Position numbers and translations under genes: made by a program. A stretch of 64,000 nucleotides of DNA from an uncultured Planctomycetota bacterium (lineage in GTDB: Bacteria; Planctomycetota; UBA11346): assembly GCA_903902515.1 (NCBI GenBank), contig CAIUVD010000091.1, forward strand, positions 8,199 to 72,198, written 5' to 3'. This document shows, one piece after another, positions 3,467 through 49,448 of this stretch (position 1 is the stretch's first letter; each line of letters opens with the position of its first letter). The notes under the pieces were generated by a model. That model was given only the letters and a program-made list of their open reading frames with translations. It made no database searches and was not told the origin of the DNA.

Positions 3467-4645
3467 TTAAGCCGTCGCCACTACCTCCTGGATTGGCTGC
3501 CGCTGAGCTGCACTTGCCGGCGCTAATTGACGCAAAATGAATGCCCCCCGCGGCCACTCTGAGACCGCGTGACGAAAGATCATTTGCTGACGAGAGTAAC
3601 CTTGGGTCGTCAACAACGACTCATGTCCGGCCCACGCAGCGACCTGGATAGCGTTGACGTCGGCGGCAAGCAGCATGGAAATCCAGGTGTGCCTTGTGCT
3701 ATGAGGAGTTCGGCCTTGAGGATCTACTCCACAGCGCTTCAGATACGACTTAAAGCGGAGTCCATGGCGCTTCCCGTCACAGTCACGGTCGTCGGGATCC
3801 GCCGCAATAAAGCCCGACAGCTTTGCGCGAGCACGGAGGATCTCAGCCAACTCCTCCTGTAGGGGAAGGAACCGCTCTTTGCCTCGTTTCAGTTTATAGA
3901 CCCCTGGTTGATGGCAGACCTCAATAACCTTGGCCTCCCAACGGATATCAGACCAGCGCAGGTGCATCGCCTCACCAATCCGACATCCCGTGTATGCGAG
4001 CAAGGCAAAACGCAGGAAATAGGGATCGGACTCTCGATCGCGTGCCAGAAGAGCCCGCAACTCGTCCACATTGAAGACGGCTTTATTCTTCTGAATCACC
4101 GTTGTCCGCTTGATGCCCGCGATCGGATTGAAGGTCAGACGCCTTGTGTTGATAGCATGGCGGACCACCGAACGAATCTCCTGGAGCCAACGATTGCGCG
4201 TGTGAGCCGTTACGGTCAGCACATCGATCCGGTCTTCGGCAAAAGTCTTGCCCGAATCAAGGAACCGGCGGACCAGGGACGGGAAGATCGGAGACTTCAT
4301 GTCCCTAGCCCCAAGGTCTGCAAGGGCCTGGATCAGGCGCTCGTGCTCGCGGACGTAGGGCTCTGAGCGTTGTGCCGACCTCAAATTTTCGACCAGTTCC
4401 ATTCCGACCGTGCGCCAGTCGGCATCTGTGGCCGAATCCAACCCAGTCGTGAAACGGGCACTGGTCATCTGGCCCCAGCGGCGGGCATCGGCTATCTGCC
4501 CATCTGCAAAGGAACGGCTCACCCGCCGATTGGTCGTGGGATCCCGAACCTGGACTTCATAGCGAGCCCCTTCCCGAATTCCGCGTTTTTTCCAGATGTC
4601 CCGGATAATGACGCCTCGGATTCCTGAGTTGGCGAGCTTGGGCAT
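3467..4645 (-). CDS. int: Tyrosine site-specific integrase (phage integrase family)
   Basis: LLAYTGCRIGE (catalytic Arg box I) and HSTRHTW (box II His-x-x-Arg) plus the C-terminal Tyr region. True start taken as MPKLANSG (4645). The longer ORF in the track runs through the att repeat (DLGLEPRT reads a tRNA T-arm) and is an artefact. Confidence 0.85.
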   Translation of the reverse strand: MPKLANSGIRGVIIRDIWKKRGIREGARYEVQVRDPTTNRRVSRSFADGQIADARRWGQMTSARFTTGLDSATDADWRTVGMELVENLRSAQRSEPYVREHERLIQALADLGARDMKSPIFPSLVRRFLDSGKTFAEDRIDVLTVTAHTRNRWLQEIRSVVRHAINTRRLTFNPIAGIKRTTVIQKNKAVFNVDELRALLARDRESDPYFLRFALLAYTGCRIGEAMHLRWSDIRWEAKVIEVCHQPGVYKLKRGKERFLPLQEELAEILRARAKLSGFIAADPDDRDCDGKRHGLRFKSYLKRCGVDPQGRTPHSTRHTWISMLLAADVNAIQVAAWAGHESLLTTQGYSRQQMIFRHAVSEWPRGAFILRQLAPASAAQRQPIQEVVATA

Positions 4646-4847
4646 GGGATCGTCCTTAAGGGTAGGGCCGTGGATAGGCCGTGGATAGCTCAGTGTCCCA
4701 CCATAGACCACCATCCCGAGGAATTTCTGAGGTCCGCTCGGGATCGCAGCCAGTGGGGGCCGTCGGCCATTATAGCCGACTGAACAATGACTTAACGTCA
4801 TTTTATCGATCCTCAGCGATCCCCTGCAATCCCCCGTGTCGTGAATT

Positions 4848-4890
4848 CTTAATCCCTGGGTCCTAGGTTCGAGTCCTAGATCGCGCACCA
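4848..4890 (+). repeat. att-like repeat copy 1: tRNA 3'-end-like fragment (T-stem CTAGG/CCTAG, T-loop TTCGAGT, 7-nt acceptor 3' strand, discriminator A, CCA). No 5' half present
   Basis: CTTAATCCCTGGGTCCTAGGTTCGAGTCCTAGATCGcgcacca. No complementary acceptor 5' strand (GCGCGAT) within 90 nt upstream, so not a complete tRNA. 34/36 identical to 15164-15199. Confidence 0.6.
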
Positions 4891-4896
4891 TGATAA

Positions 4897-4935
4897 GCCC
4901 CTGCAATCTAAGTGGTTGCAGGGGCTTTGTGTTTT
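4897..4935 (+). terminator. Rho-independent terminator (10-bp perfect stem, 9-nt loop, T-rich tail) immediately after the tRNA-like att copy
   Basis: GCCCCTGCAA tctaagtgg TTGCAGGGGC TTTGTGTTTT. Confidence 0.6.
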
Positions 4936-5144: not shown

Positions 5145-5855
5145 TTATACTTCACCAAGCGCGTTCAGCCGCTTCTTACGATCTTCCCAATCCGGCATTA
5201 ATCGCTGCAATAATCGCCAAAATTTTGGTGAATGGTTGTGTTCTGCGAGATGGCAGAGCTCATGCATCACCACGTAGTCGATGCACTCGCGGGAGGCCTT
5301 GAGGAGCTCCAGATTGAGAATGATCCGACCAGCCGGGGTGCAACTCCCCCAGCGGTGGGTCATGCGACGGACGAGCAGGGTGGGGAGAGGGATGCCTTCC
5401 ACTGCTGCCAGTCGATGGCAAGCCTTCAAGCGCTCTGCGAACACCTCTCCAGCTCGATCTGCATACCACGTCCGCACCAGGTGGCCGAGAACGGCCGGAG
5501 ACGGGTGATCGGGCGTCGTGACGTCCAAATACCCGCGCCGCAGAACAACTCCCGCGATCGGCCCGGGAATGGCCCGCAGGCGGTATTGCCGCCCCAGGTA
5601 ACGGTGCGTTTCGCCCGGGACATACTCCCGGGGAGACTGAAGGGGGTGGAAACACTCAAATTCACGCCACGCCTGCCGGATCCACGCACCCCGCTTGCAG
5701 ACTTTGGCCCGGATGCGCTCCAACGGTGTTCCGATGGGCGCGGTCACCTCGACGGCCAGGTCGGGCCGGACCGTGATGGCGAGGGTCTTGGCCGGTCCAA
5801 ACCGGTAATGGTAGGGGATCTCGGTAGAGCCCCAGACCACGCGATCGGCCAGCAT
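5145..5855 (-). CDS. M48-family / DUF45 (YgjP-like) zinc metallopeptidase of the kind commonly linked to type I R-M loci
   Basis: HELCHLAEHNH (HExxH) near the C-terminus. N-term IPYHYRFGPAKTLAITVRPDLAVEVTAP resembles YgjP/DUF45. Start at MLADRV (5855) overlaps the hsdR stop (5857). Confidence 0.7.
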   Translation of the reverse strand: MLADRVVWGSTEIPYHYRFGPAKTLAITVRPDLAVEVTAPIGTPLERIRAKVCKRGAWIRQAWREFECFHPLQSPREYVPGETHRYLGRQYRLRAIPGPIAGVVLRRGYLDVTTPDHPSPAVLGHLVRTWYADRAGEVFAERLKACHRLAAVEGIPLPTLLVRRMTHRWGSCTPAGRIILNLELLKASRECIDYVVMHELCHLAEHNHSPKFWRLLQRLMPDWEDRKKRLNALGEV

Positions 5856-5856
5856 C

Positions 5857-8800
5857 TCAGCCTCCCGCCTGCTTCTTGAGGGTGGACACCACCTGCGCCA
5901 AGAGCTGGTCGATCTCGGCCGTCGTCCAACCGATCCCATGTGCTGAGCGCAGGTCAAACAGGGCATCATCGACCGCATTCTCGACGTCCTTGATCAGGTC
6001 TGGACTGTGGACCCAGTCGACGATGCGAACCTTGGGTTGCACCCGCTCCTCGATCTCCAAGGCGAGCGTTGATGCGAGTTGGCGAAGGTCGACCCCGCTC
6101 CCCACCTCTTGGGCGCGGCTCTTGGTAACCTCAACCTGCTCCAGAGCGGTCCCCATCAGGCCGAAGAACGCTCGTGCAGCCCGGTGGCGTTCACCTTCCA
6201 ACTCAATCGGTAGCTCGTCCGCGTGCCCTTGGCGCACCTGGGCGAGGTAGACCTCAACCTTCTTCAGGTATTCCAGTTCACTGATGCGTTCATGGCGGTA
6301 ATCGTCAATGGTTTGTTGCACCAACTTAGCAAAACGACCGTAAAATTCTTCGTCCTCCCCCATCTTCTCGCGGCAGGTTTTGGCCAGTCGGCTGGCGATG
6401 GTGTCAGCCTTCGACGCCGCGCTCTCGTGGGTCGCCACTTCTTGGTCCATTGCCTTCACGTCGAAGAGGCTGAATTCCGGGGTGATGATCTTCACCTCTG
6501 GAGCCTGAATGTGGTCGTCCAACAGCTTGCGGATTTGTTTTTCGTATTGGCTGTAGTCCACCCGGTCGCCGTACCTGCTCTGGACCGAGGTTCGCAGGCC
6601 GATGAAGCGCTTGAAATCCCGTTTAAAAACCTCCAGCCGTTCGCGCGGCACCAGGGCGTAGACCTGCTCGGATGCCAGGGCCGTGGCTAGGGTCTTTTGG
6701 AAGGTCCGCAGGGTCGCGTAGAAGGACTCTCGGCGATCCTCAGGTGCAAGGTGCCGCTCCATTGCTTCATTGTCGAGCTGGTTGCAGACCTCTTTGAAGA
6801 TCGCCCAGACATCGCTGTGGTGCTGTGGCAGGTCGGCGATCACCGAGCTGACGTCAGTCACCGCCCCGCCCAGGTCGACGTCGTTCTGATCGAAGCCCGC
6901 CAGGGCATCGTATGTCTTCATCGAGGCGTTGAGCTCACCAAGCACCCCACGGTAGTCCACGATCAGGCCATGATCCTTGCCCGGGAACAGCCGGTTCACG
7001 CGTGCGATCGCCTGGAGGATGTTGTGCTCCTTGAGCGGCTTATCGATGTACAGCACGGCATTACGCGGCTCATCGAACCCGGTCAGCAACTTGTCGACCA
7101 CGATCAAGATCTCGACGTCGCTGTCTTCCTGCCCGAAGGCGGCCTTGAGCTGGCGGTTGTAGACATCCTCCGTCTTGAACCGCTTCATCATCTCGGCCCA
7201 GAACTGGCCAACCAGGGATTCATCCTCTTCGACCGCCTCGTCCTCGCCCCGAACATCCGGGGCAGACATGATCACTTCCGCCTGCACGAGGCCGAATTCC
7301 TGCATGAATTTCCGGTAGCGGATGGCGCTGGTGCGGTTGCGTGCGGCGACCTGGCCCTTGAGCCCGCGCCCCTGGAAGTTGGCTTTGAAGTGGGTGCTGA
7401 TGTCGAAGGCGATCAGCTTGATGCGTTGTTCGGCTTCACTCAGCACCTCGCGCCGCGACATCGTGCGCTTGAGGTCTGCCCGCTGCTTCTCGCTCAGGCT
7501 CGTGGTCAATCGCTCGAACCACTGATCCAGGGCCCGCTCGTTCTGCTCCAGCAAGGCCATCCGTCCCTCGTACACGAGGGGTGCCACGGCCTCGTCATCG
7601 ACGGCCTGACGCATGGTGTAGCTGTGGATGAAGCCGCCAAATTTCTGTGCGGTCTGCTTTTCCTTCTTCAGGAGAGGGGTGCCGGTGAAGGCGATGTAGC
7701 ACGCATTGGGGAACACCCGTCGCATCTTGGCGGCAAAGCCCCCATAGTTCGACCGGTGGCCTTCATCGATCATCACGAAGATGTTCGGGCTCTCATCCCG
7801 GGCCTGATTCTTGTCCATGACCGCCGCGAACTTGTTAATGATCGCGGTGATGACGCTGGCCTTGCCCTCGGTGATGAGCTTGGCCAGGTGCTCGCCCGTC
7901 CGTGCCCGTTCCGTGGTTTTGCCGCAGGCCTCAAAGGTTCGCGACAACTGAATGTCGAGGTCGTCGCGGTCGGTAACCAGCACCACACGTGGGTCGGTGA
8001 TGCCAGGGTGCAGGGCGATCGCCTTGGCCAGCATGACCATGGTTAGCGATTTTCCGGACCCCGTCGTGTGCCAGACGACCCCGCCCTCGCGTGCGCCCTC
8101 GTGGAGCGTGGTCACGCGGGCGACCGTCGCCGCCACGGCGAACCACTGCTGGTACCGGGCGACCTTGCGCACCCCAGCATCGAACACCACGGCGTCGCGG
8201 ATGAACGTCACCAAGCGATCTTGGCGCAGCATGGCCCAGAGCGTGCGGTCCTGCTCGGTTGGCAGGCGATCACCGGCCTTGGCCCGTTCCTGCCACCAGA
8301 GCCGCGCCTCACGGTAGGCGTCCACTCGCTTGGAATCGGGAGGCGCGAAGAGCTTGGCCTCGACGTCATCGGGCAGCCGCTGGTTGGCAGAGGCATGGAC
8401 CGCCTGCTCGTGCCGTCCCTCTTCCTTCCAGACGCTCCAGAATTTCAGCGGCGTCCCCACCGTGCCATAGCGGCAGGAATTCACGCTCGTCCCCAGCACC
8501 AGTTGCGCGAATTGGAAGAGGTGGGGGATGTGATCGTCCTTCTGATAGGTCACGACCTGCTTGATGGCCTTCTCGATGGCCTTGTCCCCAACGTCGCCGT
8601 CCTGGTCGCGACGTTTACATTCGATGACCACCACGGGGATGCCGTTGATGAACAGCACCAGATCAGGTCGGCAGGTCTCGTGGGAGCGCGACCGCTCGAC
8701 GGCGAACTCATCGCTGACGTGGTAGACGTTGCGCTCCGGCCGCAGCCAATCGATGAAGTGCACCTGCCGACCCTTGCGGTCGCCCTCCACTTCAACGTCG

Positions 8801-9117
8801 ACGCTCGTCCCCAGGGTGAGCAGGTGGTACACCGCCTCGTTGGTCCGCACCAAGCCGTCATACGGCACCTCGGTCAGTCGACGGATGGCCTCCCCCAGGT
8901 TCACATCCGAGAACGGCAGCGACTGCCCACGAGCCTCCACCCGGTTGTGCTCTGCCAGCCAGGGCTTCAGCACCCCGGTCAACACTACCTGGTCTTGCCG
9001 GCCTCCACGCAGGGCCAAGGCCTCTTCCCGGCTGAGGTACTGCCAGCCCAAGGCGCAGAGCACCTGCACCGCAGGGATCTGGCTGTCGAGATCTTCGAGG
9101 TAGGGCGAGAGCGCCAT
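5857..9117 (-). CDS. hsdR: Type I restriction enzyme R subunit
   Basis: 1086 aa, SF2 helicase motifs TTGSGKSLTMV (Walker A) and FVMIDEGHRS (DEAH-like); size and architecture typical of HsdR. Confidence 0.9.
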   Translation of the reverse strand: MALSPYLEDLDSQIPAVQVLCALGWQYLSREEALALRGGRQDQVVLTGVLKPWLAEHNRVEARGQSLPFSDVNLGEAIRRLTEVPYDGLVRTNEAVYHLLTLGTSVDVEVEGDRKGRQVHFIDWLRPERNVYHVSDEFAVERSRSHETCRPDLVLFINGIPVVVIECKRRDQDGDVGDKAIEKAIKQVVTYQKDDHIPHLFQFAQLVLGTSVNSCRYGTVGTPLKFWSVWKEEGRHEQAVHASANQRLPDDVEAKLFAPPDSKRVDAYREARLWWQERAKAGDRLPTEQDRTLWAMLRQDRLVTFIRDAVVFDAGVRKVARYQQWFAVAATVARVTTLHEGAREGGVVWHTTGSGKSLTMVMLAKAIALHPGITDPRVVLVTDRDDLDIQLSRTFEACGKTTERARTGEHLAKLITEGKASVITAIINKFAAVMDKNQARDESPNIFVMIDEGHRSNYGGFAAKMRRVFPNACYIAFTGTPLLKKEKQTAQKFGGFIHSYTMRQAVDDEAVAPLVYEGRMALLEQNERALDQWFERLTTSLSEKQRADLKRTMSRREVLSEAEQRIKLIAFDISTHFKANFQGRGLKGQVAARNRTSAIRYRKFMQEFGLVQAEVIMSAPDVRGEDEAVEEDESLVGQFWAEMMKRFKTEDVYNRQLKAAFGQEDSDVEILIVVDKLLTGFDEPRNAVLYIDKPLKEHNILQAIARVNRLFPGKDHGLIVDYRGVLGELNASMKTYDALAGFDQNDVDLGGAVTDVSSVIADLPQHHSDVWAIFKEVCNQLDNEAMERHLAPEDRRESFYATLRTFQKTLATALASEQVYALVPRERLEVFKRDFKRFIGLRTSVQSRYGDRVDYSQYEKQIRKLLDDHIQAPEVKIITPEFSLFDVKAMDQEVATHESAASKADTIASRLAKTCREKMGEDEEFYGRFAKLVQQTIDDYRHERISELEYLKKVEVYLAQVRQGHADELPIELEGERHRAARAFFGLMGTALEQVEVTKSRAQEVGSGVDLRQLASTLALEIEERVQPKVRIVDWVHSPDLIKDVENAVDDALFDLRSAHGIGWTTAEIDQLLAQVVSTLKKQAGG

Positions 9118-9118
9118 G

Positions 9119-10045
9119 TCAGGTCGTCCAGAAGGAGTGCGTACGCCAGTTGGCAGGCAGGCCCATGGCCACCTGCCAGCGCGGGTGGCTGTCCATCTCG
9201 GTCAAAAGCGCCTGTACGCGACCCGACCAATGGCTTCCTGCCTGGTGATGCCGCAGCAGGTAGCGCAGGATCAGCAACACGCCGTACACGTGATGTCGAT
9301 CCGGGAGGGCCGGTGGAATCCAGCACCGCTCTTCGGTCGTCGGGCTGCGGGGGTTGCGCGGTTCGGGCATGGTGGGCTTGATCGCCAAATCCCGATTCCA
9401 CAGCCGCCCATGGTGGGCACAGAGGTTGCGCACGTATGACAGGGTATGCAGCCAGTCACCAAAGACACGGTGGTGCACGCGATACGATCCGGCAACTGCT
9501 CGCTTATCGTCATGGTGCAGGCCACGAAACAGCACCGACAGCGACCCGAGCGACATGACCTCAGACGCCACCCACAGGGGGAGCGACGGGAAGCCGTCGT
9601 AGGTGTTTTCGTAATGGAGGATGAAGGTCTCCTCCGAACGCTCAGCCTCCCGGTGCAGCTTGTCGATCCACTCAGGGTGACGGAACTGCGGGTGGAAGTT
9701 CACGGAGGCTTCGTGCCCGTAGGGGCCGTAGGCGTGCACCAAATGGTAGGTCACCGTGGTGCGCACGGCAATCTCGACCCGTTCGATTGCATCCATGACC
9801 AGCAGGCGGAGACGGCGGTCAAACTCATAGAGCCGCTCCGCCTCTGCCAGGCTTGCGGTGTCTTCGAAGCGATCGCCAGGAACCAGCTTAAACAGCAGCC
9901 AGTAGGCACTGAGGCGGTAATAGCTCACGCGGCTGAGCAATGCCTCGGCCCCTCGCCGGTTGCCCACGTTCAGCCCACGGGCCTCCAGCAGGTCCACCTG
10001 CTGGGCGAAGGTCAGGGCGGTTTTGTTGTAGGGCTTGGTGCTCAT
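9119..10045 (-). CDS. Abi-like protein (Abi_2 / AbiD-AbiF family abortive-infection protein)
   Basis: 308 aa, N-terminal LSRVSYYRLSAYW motif characteristic of the Abi_2 family; ends 2 nt before hsdR start. Confidence 0.7.
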   Translation of the reverse strand: MSTKPYNKTALTFAQQVDLLEARGLNVGNRRGAEALLSRVSYYRLSAYWLLFKLVPGDRFEDTASLAEAERLYEFDRRLRLLVMDAIERVEIAVRTTVTYHLVHAYGPYGHEASVNFHPQFRHPEWIDKLHREAERSEETFILHYENTYDGFPSLPLWVASEVMSLGSLSVLFRGLHHDDKRAVAGSYRVHHRVFGDWLHTLSYVRNLCAHHGRLWNRDLAIKPTMPEPRNPRSPTTEERCWIPPALPDRHHVYGVLLILRYLLRHHQAGSHWSGRVQALLTEMDSHPRWQVAMGLPANWRTHSFWTT

Positions 10046-10068
10046 GCCAGGTTTCCCGGCGTGCGCGT

Positions 10069-10126
10069 AAAAACAAAAAAGCCGCCAAGGTTACGCATGC
10101 CCCTTGCGGGGTATAGGCGTGGCGGC
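10069..10126 (-). terminator. Candidate rho-independent terminator between hsdS and abi (minus strand): GC stem GCCGCCA/TGGCGGC with inner CCCC-gcaa-GGGG hairpin, then U-run
   Basis: Plus-strand AAAAACAAAAAA (10069-10080) is the minus-strand T-tract directly 3' of the stem 10081-10087/10120-10126. Confidence 0.45.
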
Positions 10127-10328
10127 TGTGTTGGAGGTACGATGCCAGATGCGTGGCTGTCGCGCAACATGGCAAAAAACAACACGCTCTCCCGTATCCG
10201 TGTCTCGATCTGCGACACAAGGAGCTCATCTATGAAGACAGTAATCATGACAGCCCCTGCCTTGGCCAGCCCCCAGGGGCGTGGATCGTAGAAGTTGCCA
10301 AGACAGGCGGACATGGCCATGGGTGCTC

Positions 10329-11597
10329 CTAGGCCGCCTGGACCTTCACGCGGCGTTTGCCGGTGAGGAGCTGTTGCATGAGGCCCTTTTTCTGGGTGCG
10401 AAAAGCGGAGAGCAATCGTTCGAGCAACTCGATTTCCCGATCGACGATGTCAAATAGATCGGCGATGCGCCGTTGTTCGTCTAACTCCGGCAGGGGGATA
10501 GGCAACTGTGCCAGGTCATCAAAATAGATGCGGATGCGCACGCCGCCGGCGCCTGCGGTGTCCATGAATGAAGACCATGCATCCGAACGCCGAAATGCGT
10601 TGAAATAGCGATGGTCGATTGCCTCATCACGGCAGCGGAACACCACATAATCCGGTGAAACGAGCGCATCTTCCTGCCCCAGCCATTGGCAGATAGAGCC
10701 AATGTTGATACGCATTGGATTATAGGCGAACCAGTGATTTTTGACGATCAGGTAGCGGGATAAATCGTCGGCCATGACATGCTCCTTCATGGGGATCATG
10801 CCTTCTGCTTTGTTCACAGCCCTGACGGATTCCGAACCAAGGCGCCCATTATTTCGGACGGAGCTGGCCTCGGCGACGTCGCCGATAGTGCGCTTCCGCC
10901 ACGGCTTGGTAAACCCAGGAAACCTCCGCTTCCCCGTCAGCAACTGCTGCATGAGGCCTTGGCGACGTTTACGCGAGGCCTTCAGGAGATTTTCCAGGTA
11001 AAGCGAGGCAGTCTCCCAGTGCTCAAGAATTCGCGAGATTTCTTGTTGCTCGGAAAAAGAAGGAATTGGGATCCTGAGCGCTAGGAGGTCATCCTGCGTA
11101 ATATTTTTCATAGAATCGCTCGTCCCGGTTGCCTGGGATGAGAGCCGGTGACGAAGTGTCGGCAATTGCAGTAGGTGGGAAAGCCACTTGGTGGAATACT
11201 TGACCCCAGAGCGAGGCTTTAACTGCCAAAGTTTATCGGGAAGATATGTCTTTGGACAGTCCTCTCGCACTAACGCACTAGCGCCGACGAGATCAGGGGT
11301 ATTACAACGGCTGACGATAAGGTGACCCTTGAGCACAGGCTCGCTTACTCGTGCAACATCCTCGGGGATAACGACCTTGGCGGCATTTTTTTTGAACACG
11401 CCGTAAGACACTGCGCTGATCTTCAGGACGGTTATTTCACCTGTGCTTGCTGGCCGATCTTCACCATTAACGCTCACTCCAGAGTCTAGAGAGCCAACAA
11501 GATCAGAAACCTTGCCAGCTTTCCAGTCTGTAGGAACGAGTCCAAGATGCGGCACTTCCTTGAAAGCTGCTGTCACAGCCCCAACTCCTTGAGGCAC
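10329..11597 (-). CDS. hsdS: Type I R-M specificity subunit, two target-recognition domains
   Basis: 422 aa with the conserved inter-TRD repeats RQGLMQQLLTGKRR and KKGLMQQLLTGKRR. Confidence 0.85.
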   Translation of the reverse strand: MPQGVGAVTAAFKEVPHLGLVPTDWKAGKVSDLVGSLDSGVSVNGEDRPASTGEITVLKISAVSYGVFKKNAAKVVIPEDVARVSEPVLKGHLIVSRCNTPDLVGASALVREDCPKTYLPDKLWQLKPRSGVKYSTKWLSHLLQLPTLRHRLSSQATGTSDSMKNITQDDLLALRIPIPSFSEQQEISRILEHWETASLYLENLLKASRKRRQGLMQQLLTGKRRFPGFTKPWRKRTIGDVAEASSVRNNGRLGSESVRAVNKAEGMIPMKEHVMADDLSRYLIVKNHWFAYNPMRINIGSICQWLGQEDALVSPDYVVFRCRDEAIDHRYFNAFRRSDAWSSFMDTAGAGGVRIRIYFDDLAQLPIPLPELDEQRRIADLFDIVDREIELLERLLSAFRTQKKGLMQQLLTGKRRVKVQAA

Positions 11598-13072
11598 CCA
11601 GCCATCTCCGCCCGGACCTTAACCAATTCCGCCTCTAAATCAGCGATTTCCTTACCTACCTTGGCCAAATCCACCTCTTCCTCAGCCTCGAATGTGTCCA
11701 CATACCGGGGAATATTGAGGTTGTAATCGTTCTCGGCGATCTCTTCCAGCGTCGCCTTGTAGGCGTACTTCTCGACCGTCTTGCGGATGCGGTAGGTCTC
11801 AACGACCTTCTGGACCTCGACGTTGACCCGCAGGTAATTCTGGTTTTTCCCATCCTGGAACTCGCGGGAGGCGTCGATGAACAGCACATCCTTCCGGCTG
11901 CCACGATCACGGCGGAAGATCAGGATGGCCGCTGGGATTCCGGTACCGAAGAACAGGTTCGGAGGCAGGCCGATCACCGCATCCAGGAGGTTCTCCTCGA
12001 TCAGCTTTTGCCGAATCGCGCCTTCGGCCCCGCCGCGGAACAGCACGCCATGGGGCACGACCACACCAACCCGTCCGGTGTCCTTCACCGTGGTCTCGAT
12101 CATATGGCTAATGAAGGCGTAGTCGCCCTTGCTCTTGGGGGGCACGCCCCGGTGCCAGCGGTTGAATCGCTTGGCCTCATCGTCCGCCTTGTCCGCCCCC
12201 CACTTGTCGAGGCTGAACGGCGGATTGGCCACCACGACGTCGAAGCGCATGAGTTGGTCGTTGGCCAAGAGCTGGGGCTCCAGCAGGGTGTCCCCGGCCT
12301 CGATGCGGGCATTCGCCACATCGTGCAAGAACATGTTCATCATGCACAACGCCCAGGTCGTGCGGTTGTTCTCCTGACCCCAGATCGAGATGTTGTCGGA
12401 ATTAGCCTCGCGGGCGCAGCGCAGCAGCAGCGAGCCCGAGCCGCACGCCGGGTCGCAGATGCGCTCGCCAGCCTTGGGTGCCAGCAGCTTGGCCAGGAGG
12501 ATCGAGACCTCCTTCGGGGTGTAGAATTCCCCGGCCTTTTTACCGGCGTCGTCGGCGAACTTGCCGATGAGGAATTCGTAGGAGTCGCCGATGACGTCGT
12601 TGCCCGCCAGTCGCGAGGGACGCAGGTCGAGCTTGTTGAAGTCCTCCAGGAGGTTTTTTAGCACCTTGTTGCGATTCTTGGTCGATCCCAGGCGGGATTC
12701 GCTGTTGAAGTCAACGTTGCGGAAGACGTCCTTGAGTTTGACTTTGTTGGCCAGTTCGATGGCTTCTAAGGCCTTGTTGATCGTCTCGCCAACGCTGGCC
12801 CCTTCGCGCAGGGCATAGACCTCGGCAAAGCTGGATTTCTCGGGCAGAACGAAGCGCTCACGGTCCATCTTGCGACGGATGCGCTCCTCATCGCCCTTGA
12901 ACTCCTTGGCGAGCTCGTCGCGGCGCTCGCGCCACACGTCACTAATATACTTCACGAACAGCATCGTGAGCACGTAGTCCTTGTAGTCGGCCGCATCGAT
13001 CTGGCCGCGAAAGGAGTCGCAGGCCTGCCAGAGGATACGATTGACGTCGTCTTGGGTGGTGGTGTCGGTCAT
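11573..13072 (-). CDS. hsdM: Type I R-M N6-adenine DNA methyltransferase subunit
   Basis: DPACGSGSLL (SAM motif I) and VVANPPF (motif IV NPPF). Confidence 0.9.
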   Translation of the reverse strand: MTDTTTQDDVNRILWQACDSFRGQIDAADYKDYVLTMLFVKYISDVWRERRDELAKEFKGDEERIRRKMDRERFVLPEKSSFAEVYALREGASVGETINKALEAIELANKVKLKDVFRNVDFNSESRLGSTKNRNKVLKNLLEDFNKLDLRPSRLAGNDVIGDSYEFLIGKFADDAGKKAGEFYTPKEVSILLAKLLAPKAGERICDPACGSGSLLLRCAREANSDNISIWGQENNRTTWALCMMNMFLHDVANARIEAGDTLLEPQLLANDQLMRFDVVVANPPFSLDKWGADKADDEAKRFNRWHRGVPPKSKGDYAFISHMIETTVKDTGRVGVVVPHGVLFRGGAEGAIRQKLIEENLLDAVIGLPPNLFFGTGIPAAILIFRRDRGSRKDVLFIDASREFQDGKNQNYLRVNVEVQKVVETYRIRKTVEKYAYKATLEEIAENDYNLNIPRYVDTFEAEEEVDLAKVGKEIADLEAELVKVRAEMAGCLKELGL

Positions 13073-13084
13073 GTTCGGCTCGAT

Positions 13085-13680
13085 TTATCGTGAAGTGTTA
13101 GTGAGGAAGGAGAGGCCAATGCTGCGGTTGCGCAGGGCAACGGCCTGGGTCATGCGCCCCAAGATCTCTTGCTCCTTTTGCTGGAGCTCGCTGAGATGGG
13201 CGATGTACCCCTGCTGGTGCATCGGTGGCAAGGGAATGCAGATGGCCTCGAATAGGGCCCGTTGAACTATGGGAGTACCGGCTCCCGTGCGAGCCTGGCT
13301 GATGGCGGCTTGCGTCGGCGCCTGGTTCAGAAACCAGGCCAGGTATTCCGGATCAACAAGGCCCGGCCGAGGCCTGAGCACGAAGAAAGCCGCCGTAGGC
13401 ACCGCGTTAATGGCACATTGGTCAATTCTGGCCGCGCGGTTTTTTTCTCCGCGTGACATGAAGAGGACATCACCCCCCATCACGCAGTACCCCTCGGCCC
13501 GTTCAGGAAGGTCCATCCGCGTGTCATGGTCTTCCCCGATGGAAACGGGTCGACCTGACTCGTGGACGTGGCGTGGTTGAATGACCAGAAATCGGCCGTT
13601 GTCCTGGTGCTGGACCGCCCCTGGGTTGGAAAACCCAGGGGTGATTTCAGCCGCCTCATCGAGACGGGCATGGTTCATGT
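13085..13680 (-). CDS. Solitary half HsdS (single target-recognition domain plus conserved C-terminal helical region)
   Basis: About 199 aa from MNHARLDEAAEITPGF. TRD-like GDVLFMSRGEKNRAARIDQ...AVPTAAFFVLRP, then IPLPPMHQQGYIAHLSELQQKEQEIL typical of HsdS conserved regions. 13 nt upstream of hsdM. Confidence 0.6.
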
Positions 13681-14075
13681 GATGTCTTTCACCCATACTT
13701 TCAGGGGATTGTAGGGGGTTCCGATGGGCCAGTTCACCAGGTACCGACGACTGGTCGCCGGAGACTCGCCAATCCAAACGATGGCCGCTTCCGGCTGAAA
13801 AGGAGGCGGGTGGTTCTCCCACGCGAGGCGTGCAGTGATCTTGGCTCCCTCTTCGCTGTTCGGGGAGGTAAAGACCCCGTCGGCCCAGGCAAAATCCAGG
13901 TCACGGTACCGGACGAGCTGAACGCCGGGAACGCCCATAGCCGCCACGATGTATTGATCGACTGCCGTGGCGGACTTTACCCAAATCACTCGCCCTGCCC
14001 GCCAGCCGCGCTGGCGGGCAGGGTGCCACTCGGTGTTGTTCGCATGCGTCGCATAGAGCTCTTGGAAGGTCATCA
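13675..14075 (-). CDS. Hypothetical Trp-rich protein, no recognisable domain
   Basis: About 136 aa from MMTFQELYATHANNTEWHPARQRGW; stop overlaps the half-hsdS start; begins about 8 nt after the GIY-YIG gene stop. Confidence 0.4.
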
Positions 14076-14083
14076 TGGCAGCC

Positions 14084-14412
14084 TCACCCGTGCGCCGTCT
14101 GGTTAATCGGCGGGGCGAGGGTGCCCACCAGGTCTGCCTCGACCTGCCTCCGGCGGTCTTCGTGGGGAATTCCGATAGCCGCGATGTGGGTCGCACGCTG
14201 ACGCCGGAACGCCATGGCATGGTGGTGATTGTCAAAACGGGAGCTGAGGTCGCCCGTCTGGCCAATGTAGAGCACCGTCCAGCGTGCTCCTTCATCGCGC
14301 ATGATCGCATAGACGCCGCCGACGGCAGGGAGAGGGGTTCCGAAAGGGAACACCGTGAGGTGATAAGAGGTGCCCGACCGAGCGGTCAGGGTCACTGTGG
14401 GATGCATAGCCA
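14084..14412 (-). CDS. Small GIY-YIG nuclease-domain protein (YhbQ/UPF0213-like size)
   Basis: About 109 aa from MAMHPTVTL. GGVYAIMRDEGARWTVLYIGQTGDLSSRFDNHHH matches the GIY-x10-YIG-x-T-x-L-x2-R-x3-H pattern; GGAGAG RBS-like 8 nt upstream. Confidence 0.5.
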
Positions 14413-14530
14413 TGAAAGGCTCTCCTGGGAAAGGAGCCTGACTGGACCTCAGAGCCAAATCCGCTACAGTGGTGTTGCAAGACGTCACCTGCGGCTTGGT
14501 CGTCGGCGAGCCCGACTCCAGGTTTTAAGG

Positions 14531-14574
14531 AACCGAAAAACCCAGCCCCTGCCAGGGGGTTGGGTTTTTCGGTT
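14531..14574. repeat. Near-perfect 19-bp stem hairpin (AACCGAAAAACCCAGCCCC tgcca GGGGGTTGGGTTTTTCGGTT) at the edge of an AT-rich tract
   Basis: Arms differ at one position; T-rich tails on both sides suggest a bidirectional terminator. Confidence 0.4.
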
Positions 14575-15163
14575 TATGGCCGACAGAGAGAACGCCTCGC
14601 TGTCGCCATAATGAGTAGTGTAAGCACTCCTAATTTTTTTCAAGTTTTTTTCCGGTGTCTCCATTACTTGATATTGTCGTCGGCAGTCGCGAGGGGCCTA
14701 GGTGACAGATCTGTGCATTTTGTATATACAATTTACACATGATGTATACCTGAGGTCCGCAGCGCCACTGATGGCGTTTGTTATTATGTAAGTAATATCA
14801 TTGGGCCTCATGCATTACTCGCTGTAGTAAACCATTTAAGGCTGGGCGCAGCCGAAAGGGGAACTGGGGCTGGCCCTCTGTATCCCCTTGCTGACTCACA
14901 AGCGCCCGAGGTGTCCGCTCAGCCGTCTCCGAGGGCTGCGGGAGGGCGGCTAGGTCCGACCTTCAGCAGCCTCATTTGTCCAAGGTCCGAATTCCTAATG
15001 ATCCGTGATTTCTAGGCAGGTCAGCTCCGCCGGCCCAGCGAGAAGGCTCACCAAGCAAGTGCCTGTCGGCAATCCCTGCACCCCCCAGCTCGAGAACGTA
15101 TCTTTTTCCCGTTCGCTTTGGGTGCTGGAGTGGCTGGTGCTGTGCCCACTAATCAATTTGTCC

Positions 15164-15199
15164 CTTAATCCCTGAGCCCTAGGTTCGAGTCCTAGATCG
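15164..15199 (+). repeat. att-like repeat copy 2 (34/36 identical to 4848-4883), followed by divergent 3' sequence ATCTCCA
   Basis: CTTAATCCCTGAGCCCTAGGTTCGAGTCCTAGATCG; no complete tRNA can be folded around it. Confidence 0.6.
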
Positions 15200-15431
15200 A
15201 TCTCCATTATAAACATCTGAAAATCAATGTTTTGCAGTGGATTTTTGCCTCTGGGCTCTCGACCCTTGCTGGCCAAATTAAGATGCCTGTTGGGCGGCAG
15301 AACAACTCCAAACCTGACAGCCCCCTTAGCAGAGATGGCCTTACGGCCATCCCTGCTGGGGGCATTGTCCTCGTCCGATGGACCTCACCACCGCAAGGCC
15401 GGTGGAGCCCTCGGCAGAAGAAGACCAGGCT

Positions 15432-17708
15432 CTATTGGGCGACCGTGCCCTTCAAAACCTGCAGATCCTGATCCCGACTGCTGGTGCCGACCAGTATTTC
15501 AATGGCACCCGGGGGCAGGCGCCACGCCCCGTCGGCGTCGCAGATGGCCAGGCGAGACCGGGGAATCGGGATGGTGATGCTTTGACGCTGGCCGGGCTCC
15601 ACCGTGACCCTGGCCCAGGCTGCCAGCCACCGGTTGGGGCGGCTGACCGGGCCGACGGGCAGACGGGCGTAGACCTGAACCACGGTGGAAGAGGTGCGAA
15701 TGCCGGGGTTTTCGACGGTCAGCGTCACGGCCTGATCCGTGTCGGCGGGCAGGTTCTGATGCTGCAGGGTGGGCTGTACCAGGCGCAGCCGTTCATACCC
15801 GAGGCCCTCACCGAAGGCGAAGAGTGGGCGATCGTACCCCAAGGTGGCGTCATCGACATAGACCTTGCCATGGGAGGCCGGGTGGAAGTCGTAGGCGACG
15901 GGTAATTGACCGACATGACGGGGGAAGCTGATGGGGAGACGGCCCAGGGGCTCGGCATCGCCACACAGGACGGCGGCCACCGCATCACCCGTGGCCTGGC
16001 CTGGACGGAAGGCGACCAGTAGGGCCTCAGCACCATCGGTGATTTCGGGAATCGCCAGGGGTTTGCTGCAGAGGAGGATGACCACCAGCGGCGTGCCGGT
16101 AGCCCGGACTGCCTCGTACAGGCGCTGCTGGTTTTCCGGCAGGCGCAGGTGGGCCGTGGAGCAGAATTCGCCATCCCAATCGGGCGGATCGCCAACCACC
16201 AACACCACCAGGTCGGCGGCTTCGGCCGCACGAACGGCGGCCGCAAGGCGCTCCGGGTGCGCCTCTCCGGCGGGGTCATCCGTGACCTGGGCCCGGCGTT
16301 CGGGGACGTGGTGATGGGCAGGGACCATGGGGACACCGCCACACCCACGGGCGTACGTGATCACCGCGCCTTCTGCCGCCAGCCGACGTTCCAAGCCATC
16401 CCGGATGGTGCTGCTATTGGCCCGGGGATGGGCCCGGTTGCGGTGCAGGTCTTGGTTGGCCTTGTAGCCGAGGTTCCAGTCGCCCGCCTGAACGACAGGA
16501 TCATCCGCATAGGGTCCGATGAGGGCGATGCGGCGCCGGGCCCGGGGCTCGAGGGGCAACAGCTGATCCCGATTGCGCAACAGAGTCAGGGCACCGAGGG
16601 CCGTGCGATGGGCGAGGTCACGATGGGCCGGCGCCTGGAGGACGTCCTCGGGCTTTCCCACCACCAAGGGCCGCTCGAACAGACCCAGACGGAATTTCAC
16701 CGCCAAAACCCGAGCAGCGGCCCGTTCAAGATCACCACGGGTCAAGGTCCCCGCCGCAAGTTGGCGCAGGATCGCCGCGGGAGCCTCGGGTTCGGCCATG
16801 AACAAATCGGTGCCGCCTTTCAGGCAACGCACCACCGCCCGATCCAGGTCCTCGGCCGACTTCACCTGCTGCACCATCCGCGTGGCACATTCCCAATCCG
16901 TGACCACCAACCCTTCGAAGCGCAGCTCGCCCTTGAGAATCTCGGTCAGCCAGCGGTGATTTTCGCTCATGGCCACGCCATCCACGGTCTGGTAGGCGCA
17001 CATGATGGTCTGGGCACCCGCATCGACCGCGACCTGAAACGGCCTTAGGTACCGAGCGCGAATGGTCCGCTCGGACAGTTCGCATTCACTGGCGTCCCGG
17101 CCTCCGACGGTGTCGCCATAGGCGATAAAATGCTTGGGGCAGGCCGCCACGCTGGTGGGCGCATCGAGACGATCCCCCTGATACCCGGCGATCATGGCCG
17201 CCCCCATCTCGGCAATCAGCAACTGGTCTTCGCCGAAGGTTTCGCCGGTGCGGCCCCACCGCAGGTCCCGGGGCCGGCACAAGGTGGGGCTGAAGGTCCA
17301 ATGCAGCCCGGTGCTGACCATTTCGATGGCGGTCGCCCGGCCGACGGCCTTCACCGCCTCCGTATCCCAACCCGCCGCCAAGCCGAGCTGAGTTGGGTAC
17401 ACCGTGGCGCCGGCCCACAGGGTGTGGCCGTGGATGGCGTCGATGCCGGCCAGCAGGGGAATGCCCAGGCGGGTCTTGGCGGCGGTCGCCTGCAGTGCCG
17501 CGAGCTCCTCACCGCCGACAAAGAGCACCGATCCAACACCCTTGGCCGCCCATTCCTGATGGACCGGCAATGCTGGTCGCCCCGCCGCAACCTGGACCAC
17601 CTGCCAAGCCAGCTCCTCCAGGGTCGCGCGGGGGAGCAAATCCGCGACCCGGTCTTCAATGGACAAGCTGGGATTGCGGAAGGGAGCGTCGTGGAACAGA
17701 TCGGTCAT
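15432..17708 (-). CDS. bglX: Glycoside hydrolase family 3 beta-glucosidase (BglX-like)
   Basis: 758 aa, GH3 N-terminal motifs (KHFIAYGD, GLVVTDW) and C-terminal domain; chromosomal GC. Confidence 0.85.
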   Translation of the reverse strand: MTDLFHDAPFRNPSLSIEDRVADLLPRATLEELAWQVVQVAAGRPALPVHQEWAAKGVGSVLFVGGEELAALQATAAKTRLGIPLLAGIDAIHGHTLWAGATVYPTQLGLAAGWDTEAVKAVGRATAIEMVSTGLHWTFSPTLCRPRDLRWGRTGETFGEDQLLIAEMGAAMIAGYQGDRLDAPTSVAACPKHFIAYGDTVGGRDASECELSERTIRARYLRPFQVAVDAGAQTIMCAYQTVDGVAMSENHRWLTEILKGELRFEGLVVTDWECATRMVQQVKSAEDLDRAVVRCLKGGTDLFMAEPEAPAAILRQLAAGTLTRGDLERAAARVLAVKFRLGLFERPLVVGKPEDVLQAPAHRDLAHRTALGALTLLRNRDQLLPLEPRARRRIALIGPYADDPVVQAGDWNLGYKANQDLHRNRAHPRANSSTIRDGLERRLAAEGAVITYARGCGGVPMVPAHHHVPERRAQVTDDPAGEAHPERLAAAVRAAEAADLVVLVVGDPPDWDGEFCSTAHLRLPENQQRLYEAVRATGTPLVVILLCSKPLAIPEITDGAEALLVAFRPGQATGDAVAAVLCGDAEPLGRLPISFPRHVGQLPVAYDFHPASHGKVYVDDATLGYDRPLFAFGEGLGYERLRLVQPTLQHQNLPADTDQAVTLTVENPGIRTSSTVVQVYARLPVGPVSRPNRWLAAWARVTVEPGQRQSITIPIPRSRLAICDADGAWRLPPGAIEILVGTSSRDQDLQVLKGTVAQ

Positions 17709-18738: not shown

Positions 18739-18815
18739 TGGAGCGGGCGAAGAGACTCGAACTCTCGACCTACTGCATGGCAAGCAGTCGCTCTAGCCAA
18801 CTGAGCTACGCCCGC
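18739..18815 (-). tRNA. tRNA-Gly (anticodon GCC)
   Basis: Minus-strand read GCGGGCG-TA-GCTC-AGTTGGCTA-GAGC-G-ACTGC-TTGCCAT-GCAGT-AGGTC-GAGAG-TTCGAGT-CTCTT-CGCCCGC-T-CCA folds into a canonical cloverleaf; anticodon loop TTGCCAT. Confidence 0.9.
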
Positions 18816-41633: not shown

Positions 41634-42146
41634 ATGTCCATGTCTGATCAAGCCGCCCCCGAATCCGCCCCCGAGTTCATCACCATTCCCGCCGCCGAGT
41701 TCGAGACCGCCAAGCGCGAAGCCGCCGAGTGGAAGGACCGCTGCCTACGCAACCAGGCGGAGTTCGAAAACGTCCGCAAGCGCCTGCGCAAGGAGGCCGA
41801 TGAGGCCGCCACCCGGGCCACCGCCCGGGCCGTGAAGCCGTTTTTGAATGAAATCGACAACCTGGCCCGGGCGGTCGAGGTCGCCACGCCGGAAGCCTTT
41901 GCCGACTTCGCCCAGGGCGTGACCCTGATCCGCGAAAACCTCAACGGCGCCCTGCGGGGCTTGGGGATCGAACCCGTCACCTGCGAGGGCGCCTTCGACC
42001 CCGCCATTCACGAAGTCATCGCCGAAACCGAGCACGCCGAGGTCCCTAAGGGCCACATCCTGACGGTCCACCGCAGCGGCTACCGCCTCAAGGACCAGCT
42101 GGTCCGCACCGCCCAAGTGGTGGTGGCCAAACCGCCCGCCGCCTGA
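41634..42146 (+). CDS. grpE: Nucleotide exchange factor GrpE
   Basis: 170 aa, GrpE C-terminal motifs (HEVIAET, TVHRSGYRLKDQLVRTAQV). Confidence 0.85.
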   Translation: MSMSDQAAPESAPEFITIPAAEFETAKREAAEWKDRCLRNQAEFENVRKRLRKEADEAATRATARAVKPFLNEIDNLARAVEVATPEAFADFAQGVTLIRENLNGALRGLGIEPVTCEGAFDPAIHEVIAETEHAEVPKGHILTVHRSGYRLKDQLVRTAQVVVAKPPAA

Positions 42147-42314
42147 TCTTGGGCTGGCAGGTGGCCTCAGTCACCTGCCGCCCCCCCTGGGACCGCGCGC
42201 CGCTGGCGCGCTCGAAATGCTGAATCTCCGCAAGCGGGCCAGCGGCCCGCGGTCCCAGGGACGATGCTGAATGCTCGGTAACCCCCAACGGCGGCCCGGT
42301 GGGTCGCGCCTCCC

Positions 42315-43340
42315 ATGCCCGCCGCCGCCGATCCCGTCCTGTCCTACTTCGCCCCCTGGCCCGCCGACCGGACCCAGCCGGAAGTGCGTCTTGAGCGTTT
42401 TCCCAAAGGCGTTTACGACGTCCTCAAGGGACAAATCGGCCCCCTGGCGAACCTGCGGTCCTCGACCGGCTGCGGCATCTGGTTCGCCACCGACAGCCCG
42501 TGGGTCGACCTCCACGTCGAGCGCCTCCGGCACCACCAACTGATCCCCATCGGCATGGCCCTGGAGGTCGAACACCACGACGGCTGGCGGACCACCGACA
42601 GCGCCGACCTGCGAGAGCGCGAAGGCACCTGCGTGATCCGCTTGGCCACCGGCCTGGCTCCGGGCCAGGTCCGAACCTGCGCCTGGTGGCTGCCGGTGAT
42701 TTCGACCTGCGCCATCGCCGGCCTCCACGTTGCCCCGGGCTCGACCCTCGCCCCGGCGACTCCGCCGGAACCCCGCTGGCTGGCCCTCGGCGACAGCCTG
42801 ACCCAGGGCTTCAGCGTCCAGTCGCCGACCGCGACCTGGGTCCACCGCCTGTCCCGCCGCTGGGACCTGCCGGCCTGGAACCTCGGCATTGGCGGGGCGT
42901 TGATCGAACCCCTGGCCTTCGATTGGGCCCTCGACCGCAAGCCCTGGGACCTGGTGACCATCGCCCTCGGCAGCAACCATGGCTGGCGGGAATCGACGGT
43001 CCTGACCGCCGCCGACCAGGCCGCCGCCCTGGCGGAACACGCCCTGGCCGGCGGCCACGGCAAGGTGGTGTGGATTCTGCCACCGTGGAAGCCGATGGAG
43101 GACGGTAAGGGCCCTCCGGAATTCATGGGCATCCCCCTCGACCAGGCCACGGGCGCCCGCATCGCCCGGGTCCGGGACGCCCTGCGGGACCGCCTGGCCC
43201 AGTTCGCGCCGCATCTGGACGTGGTGGAAGACCTCCTACCCCACGACCACCGCTACTACCCCGATGGCCTCCACCCCTTCGCCCTCGGTTTCGCCAAGTA
43301 CGCCGAGGCCTTGGCCGGACGGATCCGGCCCTACGGGTAG
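42315..43340 (+). CDS. SGNH/GDSL-family hydrolase
   Basis: LALGDSLTQG (block I GDS) and DGLHP (block V). Confidence 0.6.
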   Translation: MPAAADPVLSYFAPWPADRTQPEVRLERFPKGVYDVLKGQIGPLANLRSSTGCGIWFATDSPWVDLHVERLRHHQLIPIGMALEVEHHDGWRTTDSADLREREGTCVIRLATGLAPGQVRTCAWWLPVISTCAIAGLHVAPGSTLAPATPPEPRWLALGDSLTQGFSVQSPTATWVHRLSRRWDLPAWNLGIGGALIEPLAFDWALDRKPWDLVTIALGSNHGWRESTVLTAADQAAALAEHALAGGHGKVVWILPPWKPMEDGKGPPEFMGIPLDQATGARIARVRDALRDRLAQFAPHLDVVEDLLPHDHRYYPDGLHPFALGFAKYAEALAGRIRPYG

Positions 43341-43379
43341 GACTTGATGACTTCCCCCTCCCCAGCGTAGTCTGCCCCC

Positions 43380-46757: not shown

Positions 46758-46765
46758 CCACGGCT

Positions 46766-48450: not shown

Positions 48451-48475
48451 TCGTCCGCGAGGAGCCGGGGCACCG

Positions 48476-49309: not shown

Positions 49310-49448
49310 GGGCTTTCGTTCATTTGCCCCTCGTGAAGGCACACGTCATCAGATCCGCGCAGCCAAAGATACGGCTGGGAACTGGCGATCTACGGTGAGG
49401 CGAGCACCGCCAACATCAGGCACGCCACGGGAAAAATGCCAGAACTCC

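Follow-up and report, generated by a model that had tools for sequence, protein, structure and literature searches.

Type I restriction–modification (R-M) systems are textbook enzymes without transcriptional control, and their S subunits are textbook specificity modules that shuffle freely. What is the role, at the head of such an operon, of a group of small genes that includes a second S-like gene of half the usual size? Here we analyse a 64,000-nucleotide (nt) stretch of DNA from an uncultured Planctomycetota bacterium (contig CAIUVD010000091.1; hereafter the window, to which all positions refer), in which genes for a stand-alone GIY-YIG nuclease, a tryptophan-rich protein of 133 amino acids (aa) and an S-like subunit with a single target recognition domain (TRD; hereafter half-S) precede hsdM. 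Our analysis suggests, with a probability of about 0.5, that this region is the head of a guard cassette of the type of Escherichia coli Ronin, fused to a complete type I R-M operon and acting by the mechanism proposed below. The unit conserved among the related loci, which are labelled with L-numbers, consists of a promoter palindrome, a leader of ~195 nt, an interchangeable first open reading frame (ORF) and a non-shuffling half-S followed by hsdM.

The genes lie on the minus strand in the order GIY-YIG gene, 133-aa gene, half-S, hsdM, hsdS, 92-aa ORF, AbiD, hsdR and ygjP (Table 1), and hsdM, the two-TRD hsdS and hsdR make up a complete type I R-M set. An earlier note on this DNA, made from the letters alone, described the three small genes as packed upstream of hsdM with gaps or overlaps of 13 nt or less, which is what we find: a gap of 7 nt between the GIY-YIG and 133-aa genes, an ATGA overlap of 4 nt between the 133-aa gene and half-S, and a gap of 12 nt between half-S and hsdM. 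Its sizes stand for the 109-aa GIY-YIG protein and the single-TRD S, but the protein between them has 133 residues, not 136, and the upper end of its interval (13085–14412) is one base short, as the GIY-YIG gene starts at 14413. The note also passed over the promoter palindrome and the structured leader (14414–14669).

Table 1. Features of the operon and its upstream region, in the direction of transcription (window positions).
Feature	Position	Strand	Remarks
Possible distal operator-like site AAGTAATGGAGACACCG	14653..14669	-	weak imperfect copy upstream of −35; tentative
Proximal palindromic operator GAGTGCTTACACTACTC	14613..14629	.	family consensus GAGTA-N7-TACTC
Structured 5′ leader, ~195 nt	14414..14607	-	hairpin AAAACCCAACCCC/GGGGCTGGGTTTT (14566–14536) and a small hairpin around the start codon; putative transcription start
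GIY-YIG nuclease, stand-alone, 'GIY1' family, first-ORF (effector) slot	14084..14413	-	109 aa
Trp-rich protein, second gene in the effector slot	13675..14076	-	133 aa
Single-TRD S-like subunit (half-S)	13085..13678	-	197 aa; one TRD and one C-terminal dimerisation helix
hsdM	11573..13072	-	499 aa; Pfam N6_Mtase E 3e-105, HsdM_N E 2e-29
Full-length two-TRD hsdS	10329..11576	-	415 aa; TRDs shuffled among related loci
92-aa ORF between hsdS and the Abi gene	10042..10320	-	called gene in identical contig L002; no Pfam match
Abi_2/AbiD-like abortive-infection gene between hsdS and hsdR	9119..10045	-	Pfam Abi_2 E 5e-53; PADLOC AbiD E 9e-72
hsdR	5857..9117	-	1086 aa; intact PD...ExK nuclease motif RPDLVLF...VIECK, read from translation
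YgjP-like (M48/SprT/WLM-like) metallopeptidase, last operon gene	5145..5855	-	translationally coupled to the hsdR end

The nearest characterised relative is Ronin of E. coli ECOR55, in which the gene for a toxic 61-aa peptide, ronA, is tightly linked to hsdS and hsdM, and which kills the E. coli cell in response to Ocr, ArdA and Aop1 with ronA as the effector (Silas et al., bioRxiv 10.1101/2023.04.06.535777). On its own, ronA kills when expressed, co-expression of HsdMS suppresses the lethality without any need for methyltransferase catalysis, and the upstream non-coding region is essential and has no substitute in a foreign promoter (pBAD) (bioRxiv 10.1101/2023.04.06.535777). A Ronin locus from the supplement of Silas et al. 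has the same layout as the window cassette: a non-coding region, a small first ORF (ronA, 61 aa), a single-TRD S of 200 aa that overlaps hsdM by 8 nt, and hsdM. The Ronin S belongs to the same half-S family, matching our half-S hidden Markov model (HMM) with 91 bits (E 1e-29, HMM positions 3–195), where the window HsdS scores 38 and 30 bits with its two halves, and reaching 99% by hhalign; the Ronin HsdM is 41% identical to that of the window, and a YgjP/M48 remnant, a pseudogene, lies beside it. Upstream of ronA we find AGTAG-N7-CTACT and TAGTA-N6-TACTA palindromes and a long hairpin, again as in the window. The two differ in their effectors, RonA being a membrane peptide with a predicted transmembrane helix, whereas the window has a soluble 109-aa GIY-YIG fold and the 133-aa protein, with no sequence relation to it. 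They also differ in context, most E. coli Ronin loci lacking hsdR, whereas the window cassette is attached to a complete hsdS–hsdR–ygjP operon. The Ronin paper calls its S 'typical'; the half size, the operator, the leader RNA and the alternative effectors are not reported there. Judged from these sequence comparisons, the window cassette is a Ronin-type module with a different effector, attached to a complete type I R-M operon. The module is thus not wholly uncharacterised, as the earlier note had it, and among the functions which that note proposed, an abortive add-on or an anti-restriction-resistant backup fit best, Ronin being a cell-death system triggered by anti-restriction proteins.

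Are the small genes real? A truncated hsdS remnant with chance ORFs in a GC-rich region might look similar, there are many overlapping ORFs in this GC-rich DNA, and the 133-aa protein has almost no homologues. This explanation, like the earlier note's thought that the ORFs might not be conserved, is contradicted by dN/dS ratios of 0.13–0.38 for the GIY-YIG gene, the 133-aa gene and half-S, by homologues in the same position, by constant lengths and conserved motifs across phyla, and by a ribosome-binding site in every family member inspected; we regard it as effectively refuted.

The architecture is conserved far beyond the window. A scan with the GIY-YIG alignment over one genome per species yielded 50 loci, and a metagenome scan with a half-S alignment of 14 sequences yielded 80 more. 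In 27 of the 50, which are the closer homologues and come from at least six phyla, the GIY-YIG gene is followed by a half-S of ~200 aa and then by hsdM, with spacings of −8 to 38 nt and −11 to 96 nt, respectively; the sources include Gamma-, Delta- and Zetaproteobacteria, Verrucomicrobiota, Gemmatimonadota and relatives of Geobacter, among them the cultured Pelotalea chapellei. Altogether, 103 non-redundant half-S loci were found across many phyla. Of the 94 loci with enough sequence, at least 89 have hsdM directly after half-S, and most of the remaining five are scoring artefacts; all 18 loci with at least 7.5 kb downstream carry a full hsdS and hsdR, 15 of them with YgjP. This recurrence speaks for a functional module that is conserved and rides on a type I R-M operon, and on that point it supports the earlier note. 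The trio as a unit does not hold up: GIY-YIG, half-S and hsdM recur together, but the 133-aa gene is confined to the window's own lineage (four divergent examples) and absent at most loci.

The first-ORF slot is occupied by unrelated genes. A GIY-YIG gene is the commonest occupant, in ~70% of loci; others are a 116-aa CxxC protein, an NYN nuclease (Pfam 6e-15), DUF2130 (2.5e-54), a PD-(D/E)XK domain according to Steczkiewicz et al. (PMC3424549), and, each at a single locus, a ThsB-type TIR protein (7e-26) with a putative membrane protein and a 432-aa protein that we could not assign. At some loci with half-S and the operator the slot is empty (L073, L078, L096, L120 and L122). The alternative occupants are scattered through the half-S tree, and exchanges between close relatives can be seen directly: half-S proteins that are 94% identical are preceded by GIY-YIG in L014 and by the CxxC protein in L082, and for a pair with 89% identity the occupants are GIY-YIG in L102 and NYN in L104. 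At the DNA level, the flanks on both sides are 90–94% identical and an ORF-sized block has been exchanged, 332 nt for 359 nt. Such free swapping is not expected for a nuclease that has to match the specificity of half-S, nor for a toxin caged by one specific surface. A specificity-guided nicking activity of the GIY-YIG protein with half-S, another suggestion of the earlier note, is therefore unlikely, the first ORF being one of several interchangeable genes. The 116-aa family (L083:2194-2544, L067, L074, L082 and L086) has invariant PGNYGLGY and YVGRSDDDVN motifs and a C-terminal CPVCG, and has no match in Pfam, NCBIfam or the PDB; a by-eye likeness of motifs to a second GIY-YIG family was dropped, as hhalign lends it a probability of 0.5%.

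The constant protein of the cassette is half-S. It is recognised by PADLOC as Specificity_I (E 3e-19), and its family profile matches S subunits in the PDB (1YF2, E 2e-21; 5YBB, 3e-20; EcoKI S, 8e-16) and the half-S homodimer Esub1 (E 1e-13). As in type I HsdS, the TRD is followed by a conserved helical region, but there is one TRD per chain instead of two, and this TRD does not vary between related systems. The family comprises 174 clusters, of which the 120 listed span 129–252 aa and include no fusions, and it aligns over its full length across phyla. Over 1081 locus pairs the median TRD identity is 44% for half-S; the two TRDs of the full HsdS encoded at the same loci have medians of 16% and 24%. 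In pairs with an HsdM identity of at least 90%, the TRDs of half-S keep an identity of at least 73% whereas those of HsdS have been swapped. The C-terminal helix of half-S, as read from the sequences, lacks the LMQQLLTGKRR motif of the full HsdS. Half-S is thus no normal specificity subunit, its TRD being conserved rather than shuffled.

Cassette and backbone have different histories. For the same locus pairs, synonymous divergence (dS) is 2- to 6-fold higher in the cassette than in hsdM, which makes the locus a mosaic. Between the window and L146, dS is 0.35 for hsdM, 1.22 for half-S and 2.3 for the 133-aa gene, with a jump at the half-S/hsdM boundary. This jump, which concerns the comparisons with L146, L008 and L009, points to recombination in which the cassette travels separately from the R-M backbone.

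Single-TRD S subunits have precedents. In the type I 1/2 methyltransferases M.AhdI, M.BsaBI and M.PshAI, and with truncated HsdS such as EcoR124I-delta and EcoDXXI-delta, an S homodimer and two M subunits read a symmetric bipartite site (PMC3874165). These systems differ from the window in that they come with a separate type II restriction enzyme or are laboratory mutants, and their TRD sets a genome-wide specificity, whereas the window half-S shares its locus with a full HsdS, is frozen in evolution and has its apparent target in its own promoter. The locus does have a single-TRD S and a separate gamma-class M, and it might be read as an AhdI-like type II system that shares HsdM, with (half-S)2M2 as the methyltransferase for a symmetric site and the GIY-YIG protein as the cognate restriction enzyme. 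However, the 109-aa core lacks a recognition domain (Eco29kI is 213 residues long), no cognate type II restriction enzyme is found, the supposed enzyme is replaced behind near-identical half-S proteins by unrelated proteins including NYN and TIR, which would be lethal for a true type II pair, and some loci have no first ORF at all. We consider an AhdI-like system very improbable.

The apparent target of half-S is a palindrome, GAGTA-N7-TACTC and often CCGAGTA-N7-TACTCGG, which across the family lies just after a TTGACA-like −35 element. In the window, the putative −35 (TTGAAA, 14643–14638) is followed by a putative −10 (14619–14614) that the right arm of the palindrome overlaps; a generic sigma-70 promoter scan of the window gave no match, and these hexamers were assigned from the consensus only. 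With one mismatch or fewer, the palindrome is present at 40 of 90 non-redundant loci, compared with 1 of 874 control windows, and it stands 180–255 nt before the first ORF whatever the identity of that ORF. Only the N7 spacing is enriched in upstream regions (40 loci, versus 0–3 for the other spacings from N3 to N11), and the proximal copy is the only GAGT-N9-ACTC site in the 64-kb window. The distal block is conserved in the window, L146 and L008, its equivalent in L008 being a match with two mismatches. Paired sites also occur elsewhere: the Geobacter-type clade has GATGR-N7-TACTY twice, flanking the −35, and two sites flank the −35 in Ronin and in a divergent half-S subclade (27–31% identity; L010, L013, L026, L150 and L154). 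This subclade carries GCATCAAT-N3-ATTGATGC at the same promoter position, with a second copy ~45 bp upstream. Because the divergent half-S clade has a different palindrome in the same place, the operator covaries with the half-S TRD; and because half-S is the sole constant, dimeric, sequence-reading protein of the cassette, it is the best candidate for the operator-binding factor. We infer that half-S binds the palindrome. A host LexA-like regulator was also considered for this site and rejected, on argument only: the motif accompanies a mobile cassette from phylum to phylum, and with its 17 bp it is built differently from the E. coli SOS box.

An operator in this position is typical of autorepression, and the same observations could be explained without any guard function, with (S1/2)2M2 autoregulating the hsd operon like a C-protein or methyltransferase-repressor, adding a palindromic site to the repertoire of the system, or both, and the first ORF being a passenger in an insertion hotspot. 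C-proteins and methyltransferase-repressors likewise act as system-encoded dimers on a palindromic operator over an R-M core promoter (PMC12707154), although they use helix–turn–helix domains or are type II methyltransferases. Active homodimers of truncated HsdS that have a palindromic specificity are known (Loenen et al., PMC3874165), the loci that keep half-S and the operator with an empty slot fit a passenger, and the hsdS–hsdR junction of the same operon is also an insertion hotspot (AbiD, E2/ThiF/JAB and KAP NTPase). An extra specificity, however, should diversify, whereas the TRD is frozen and, within 64 kb, a matching site exists in the promoter alone; all annotatable slot occupants are of a toxic-effector type and translationally coupled to half-S; and Ronin, which has the same core without hsdR, is experimentally a cell-death system. 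On balance we find a purely autoregulatory role doubtful.

Between the promoter and the first ORF lies the leader. Over ~230 nt before the GIY-YIG start, nucleotide conservation among the window, L146, L008, L009 and L066 exceeds that of coding genes, and RNAalifold on a small, narrow set predicts 69 pairs, 15 of them with compensatory changes. The leader contains a hairpin of 8 bp, in which compensatory changes occur, as well as a CTTAACC motif and another helix; both the hairpin and this second helix are kept in different clades and with different effector types. When all leaders (41 sequences) were aligned with MAFFT, RNAalifold found no structure, the distant clades being misaligned, and a column-pair scan recovered the main hairpin only. 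A search of the leader against Rfam gave sub-threshold noise only and no family. With its flanking A- and U-tracts, the hairpin at 14536–14566 has, in the window, L146 and L008, the look of a bidirectional intrinsic terminator. A terminator was rejected as the general function of the hairpin, as L009 and L066 have not kept the U-tract; a role as an attenuator may be restricted to part of the lineages. No tandem repeats were found in 14300–15450, and a type III toxin–antitoxin system, which would have such repeats before its toxin gene, was rejected.

How could these elements make a guard? In the mechanism that we propose, half-S would homodimerise through its C-terminal helix and, with two HsdM subunits, form a second complex, M2(S1/2)2, beside the ordinary enzyme; hsdM would presumably be common to half-S and the full HsdS. 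The fixed target of this complex would be the palindrome in its own promoter. The bound complex and the leader would keep the toxic first ORF silent or latent while ordinary HsdS/HsdM/HsdR restricts DNA. An anti-restriction DNA mimic of the Ocr or ArdA type would occupy the DNA-binding groove of HsdM/S and lift the block, whereupon a small non-specific GIY-YIG DNase would damage DNA and abort the infection. As control would be exerted on the slot and not on the effector protein, unrelated effectors could be exchanged as ORF cassettes. A more specific version, in which the half-S TRD has been exapted as a transcriptional-sensor head, so that a (half-S)2–HsdM2 'decoy methyltransferase' on the promoter operator gates the toxic slot together with the leader, is a tentative idea that we would sooner bet against than for. 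An S-subunit TRD has not been described as an operator-recognition module in the literature that we could search. If it is true, anti-restriction mimics would pull the complex off the operator and trigger suicide through a slot that accepts GIY-YIG, CxxC, NYN, PD-(D/E)XK, TIR and RonA effectors; Ronin would be the E. coli tip of a phylum-spanning family, and the indispensability of its upstream 235 bp would be explained.

The guard could instead act at the protein level, by the 'uncaging' that Silas et al. put forward, with half-S/HsdM sequestering the GIY-YIG protein, a DNA mimic releasing it, and the palindrome and leader serving ordinary autoregulation. The Ronin experiments, in which ronA alone is lethal, HsdMS suppresses and the methyltransferase active site is not needed, can be taken this way (bioRxiv 10.1101/2023.04.06.535777). 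In our comparison, the identities of the GIY-YIG protein and of half-S covary more closely with each other (rho 0.70) than either does with those of HsdM (0.20–0.28), and the GIY1 family has a conserved N-terminal β-hairpin extension, a possible docking element. But a single scaffold would have to cage unrelated folds, as GIY-YIG, CxxC and NYN proteins stand behind half-S proteins that are 89–94% identical; no shared peptide is evident among the effectors and no effector/half-S fusion among the 120 listed clusters; and the need of Ronin for its native upstream region, rather than pBAD, would be left unexplained. Release of a caged protein is, in our view, an unlikely basis for the cassette.

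Several points weigh against the guard mechanism with control at the promoter and leader. The binding of half-S to HsdM, to the palindrome or to an effector is predicted only, and Esub1 did not convincingly bind the host HsdM (PMC11754733). As the palindrome shares its right arm with the −10, it owes part of its conservation to the promoter, and about half of the loci lack a match to the palindrome or have one only with two or more mismatches. The effector and the R-M genes are transcribed together, so that simple repression would starve the R-M system as well; for this reason, an internal promoter or control at the level of the leader has to be assumed. The suppression of ronA toxicity by HsdMS was read by its discoverers as protein sequestration (bioRxiv 10.1101/2023.04.06.535777), the hsdR of the window is intact, unlike in most E. 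coli Ronin loci, and the ThsB–TIR case is a single locus. Finally, GIY1 homologues exist on their own, so the nuclease does not strictly need half-S.

Should the guard reading be right, a single system known at preprint level would become a broad modular family spanning Proteobacteria, Verrucomicrobiota, Gemmatimonadota, Desulfobacterota and others, and the non-coding requirement of Ronin would gain a concrete, testable explanation. A half-S directly before hsdM, together with the palindrome and the leader, would provide a signature for defence finders, and a new way of sensing anti-restriction proteins would be suggested. In any case, the type I operon here is headed by an additional half-S that is frozen, is matched by a palindrome in its promoter and comes with a swappable, putatively toxic gene. 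The analysis further points to a candidate new cis-regulatory RNA and to several small effector families that lack annotation.

The window's own first effector is a credible active nuclease by its sequence. Its gene starts with ATG, 7 nt downstream of an AGGAGA ribosome-binding site, and the protein has the GIY-YIG α/β fold; a Pfam PF01541 score of 16.4 bits, below the gathering cut-off of 22.6, marks it as a divergent subfamily. GVY35, YIG49–51, R59, H63/H64, E92 and N104 are invariant or nearly so among 14 homologues. More distant GIY1 homologues (30–40% identity) stand alone in unrelated surroundings in Bacteroidota, Chloroflexota, Nitrospira and other groups, with one case on a viral contig (L034–L048, L050–L053, L055, L058–L061 and L148), and their neighbourhoods contain no half-S, hsdM or any conserved partner. 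As half-S is absent from the viral contigs searched and GIY1 was found there once, the cassette is not a phage element.

With 8 tryptophans in 133 residues (6%), the second protein is indeed Trp-rich, as the earlier note said. It had no match in the libraries searched (including Pfam and PADLOC) and only one real homologue among 1.84 billion representatives, and structure prediction gave no usable model. L146, L011 and L008 have homologues in the same place (42%, 40% and 26% identity), and with a dN/dS of 0.29 where dS is unsaturated the gene is real and under purifying selection. Most likely, though this is a guess, the protein is a lineage-specific co-effector, or an immunity or chaperone partner of the nuclease.

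Two further systems invite comparison. PrrC, the classical guarded nuclease of a type I locus, is a latent nuclease within the hsd operon (EcoPrrI) that is activated when a phage inhibits the R-M enzyme (PMC12707154). Unlike the window effector, PrrC lies between hsdS and hsdR, is a large ATPase–nuclease and is held by the full enzyme, and there is neither a half-S nor a promoter palindrome. Esub1 of Streptococcus pyogenes (SpyM3_0890, PDB 8VSQ/8VSR) is the only natural half-S with a solved structure, a homodimer with a TRD-like head and one helix. A helix inserted in the TRD-like head mediates its binding by the phage protein paratox (PMC11754733), which shows that half-S proteins are direct targets of phages. 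It differs from the window half-S in being encoded away from hsd genes, in having no linked effector known and in that HsdM binding has not been demonstrated.

The remainder of the operon is variable as well. The AbiD insertion at the hsdS–hsdR junction recurs in L014, L016, L018, L025 and L133, and elsewhere the junction holds Prok-E2/ThiF/JAB with two proteins lacking an assignment (L065), a KAP NTPase (L154) or DUF3800 (L150); this junction is a second cargo hotspot in the same operon. Small variable ORFs also lie between hsdR and ygjP (160 aa in L008 and 181 aa in L009). Just upstream of the cassette promoter, divergent genes for a 228-aa GIY-YIG+RAMA/DUF4357 protein and a Fic/DOC–HTH protein are found in L078 (4736–6819, opposite strand), L120, L144 and L145. 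In the window, ygjP is followed by a tyrosine integrase gene (3467–4906, minus strand); ~4 kb beyond the other end of the cassette stands a tRNA-Gly(GCC) gene (18739–18815), with a GH3 β-glucosidase gene (15432–17708) between them. An integrase or resolvase gene also adjoins the cassette in L008 and L009, and the R-M block as a whole probably forms a mobile island. Base composition varies along the window, the G+C content being 70–75% at 42000–57000 and 54–65% in the R-M island (5–15 kb).

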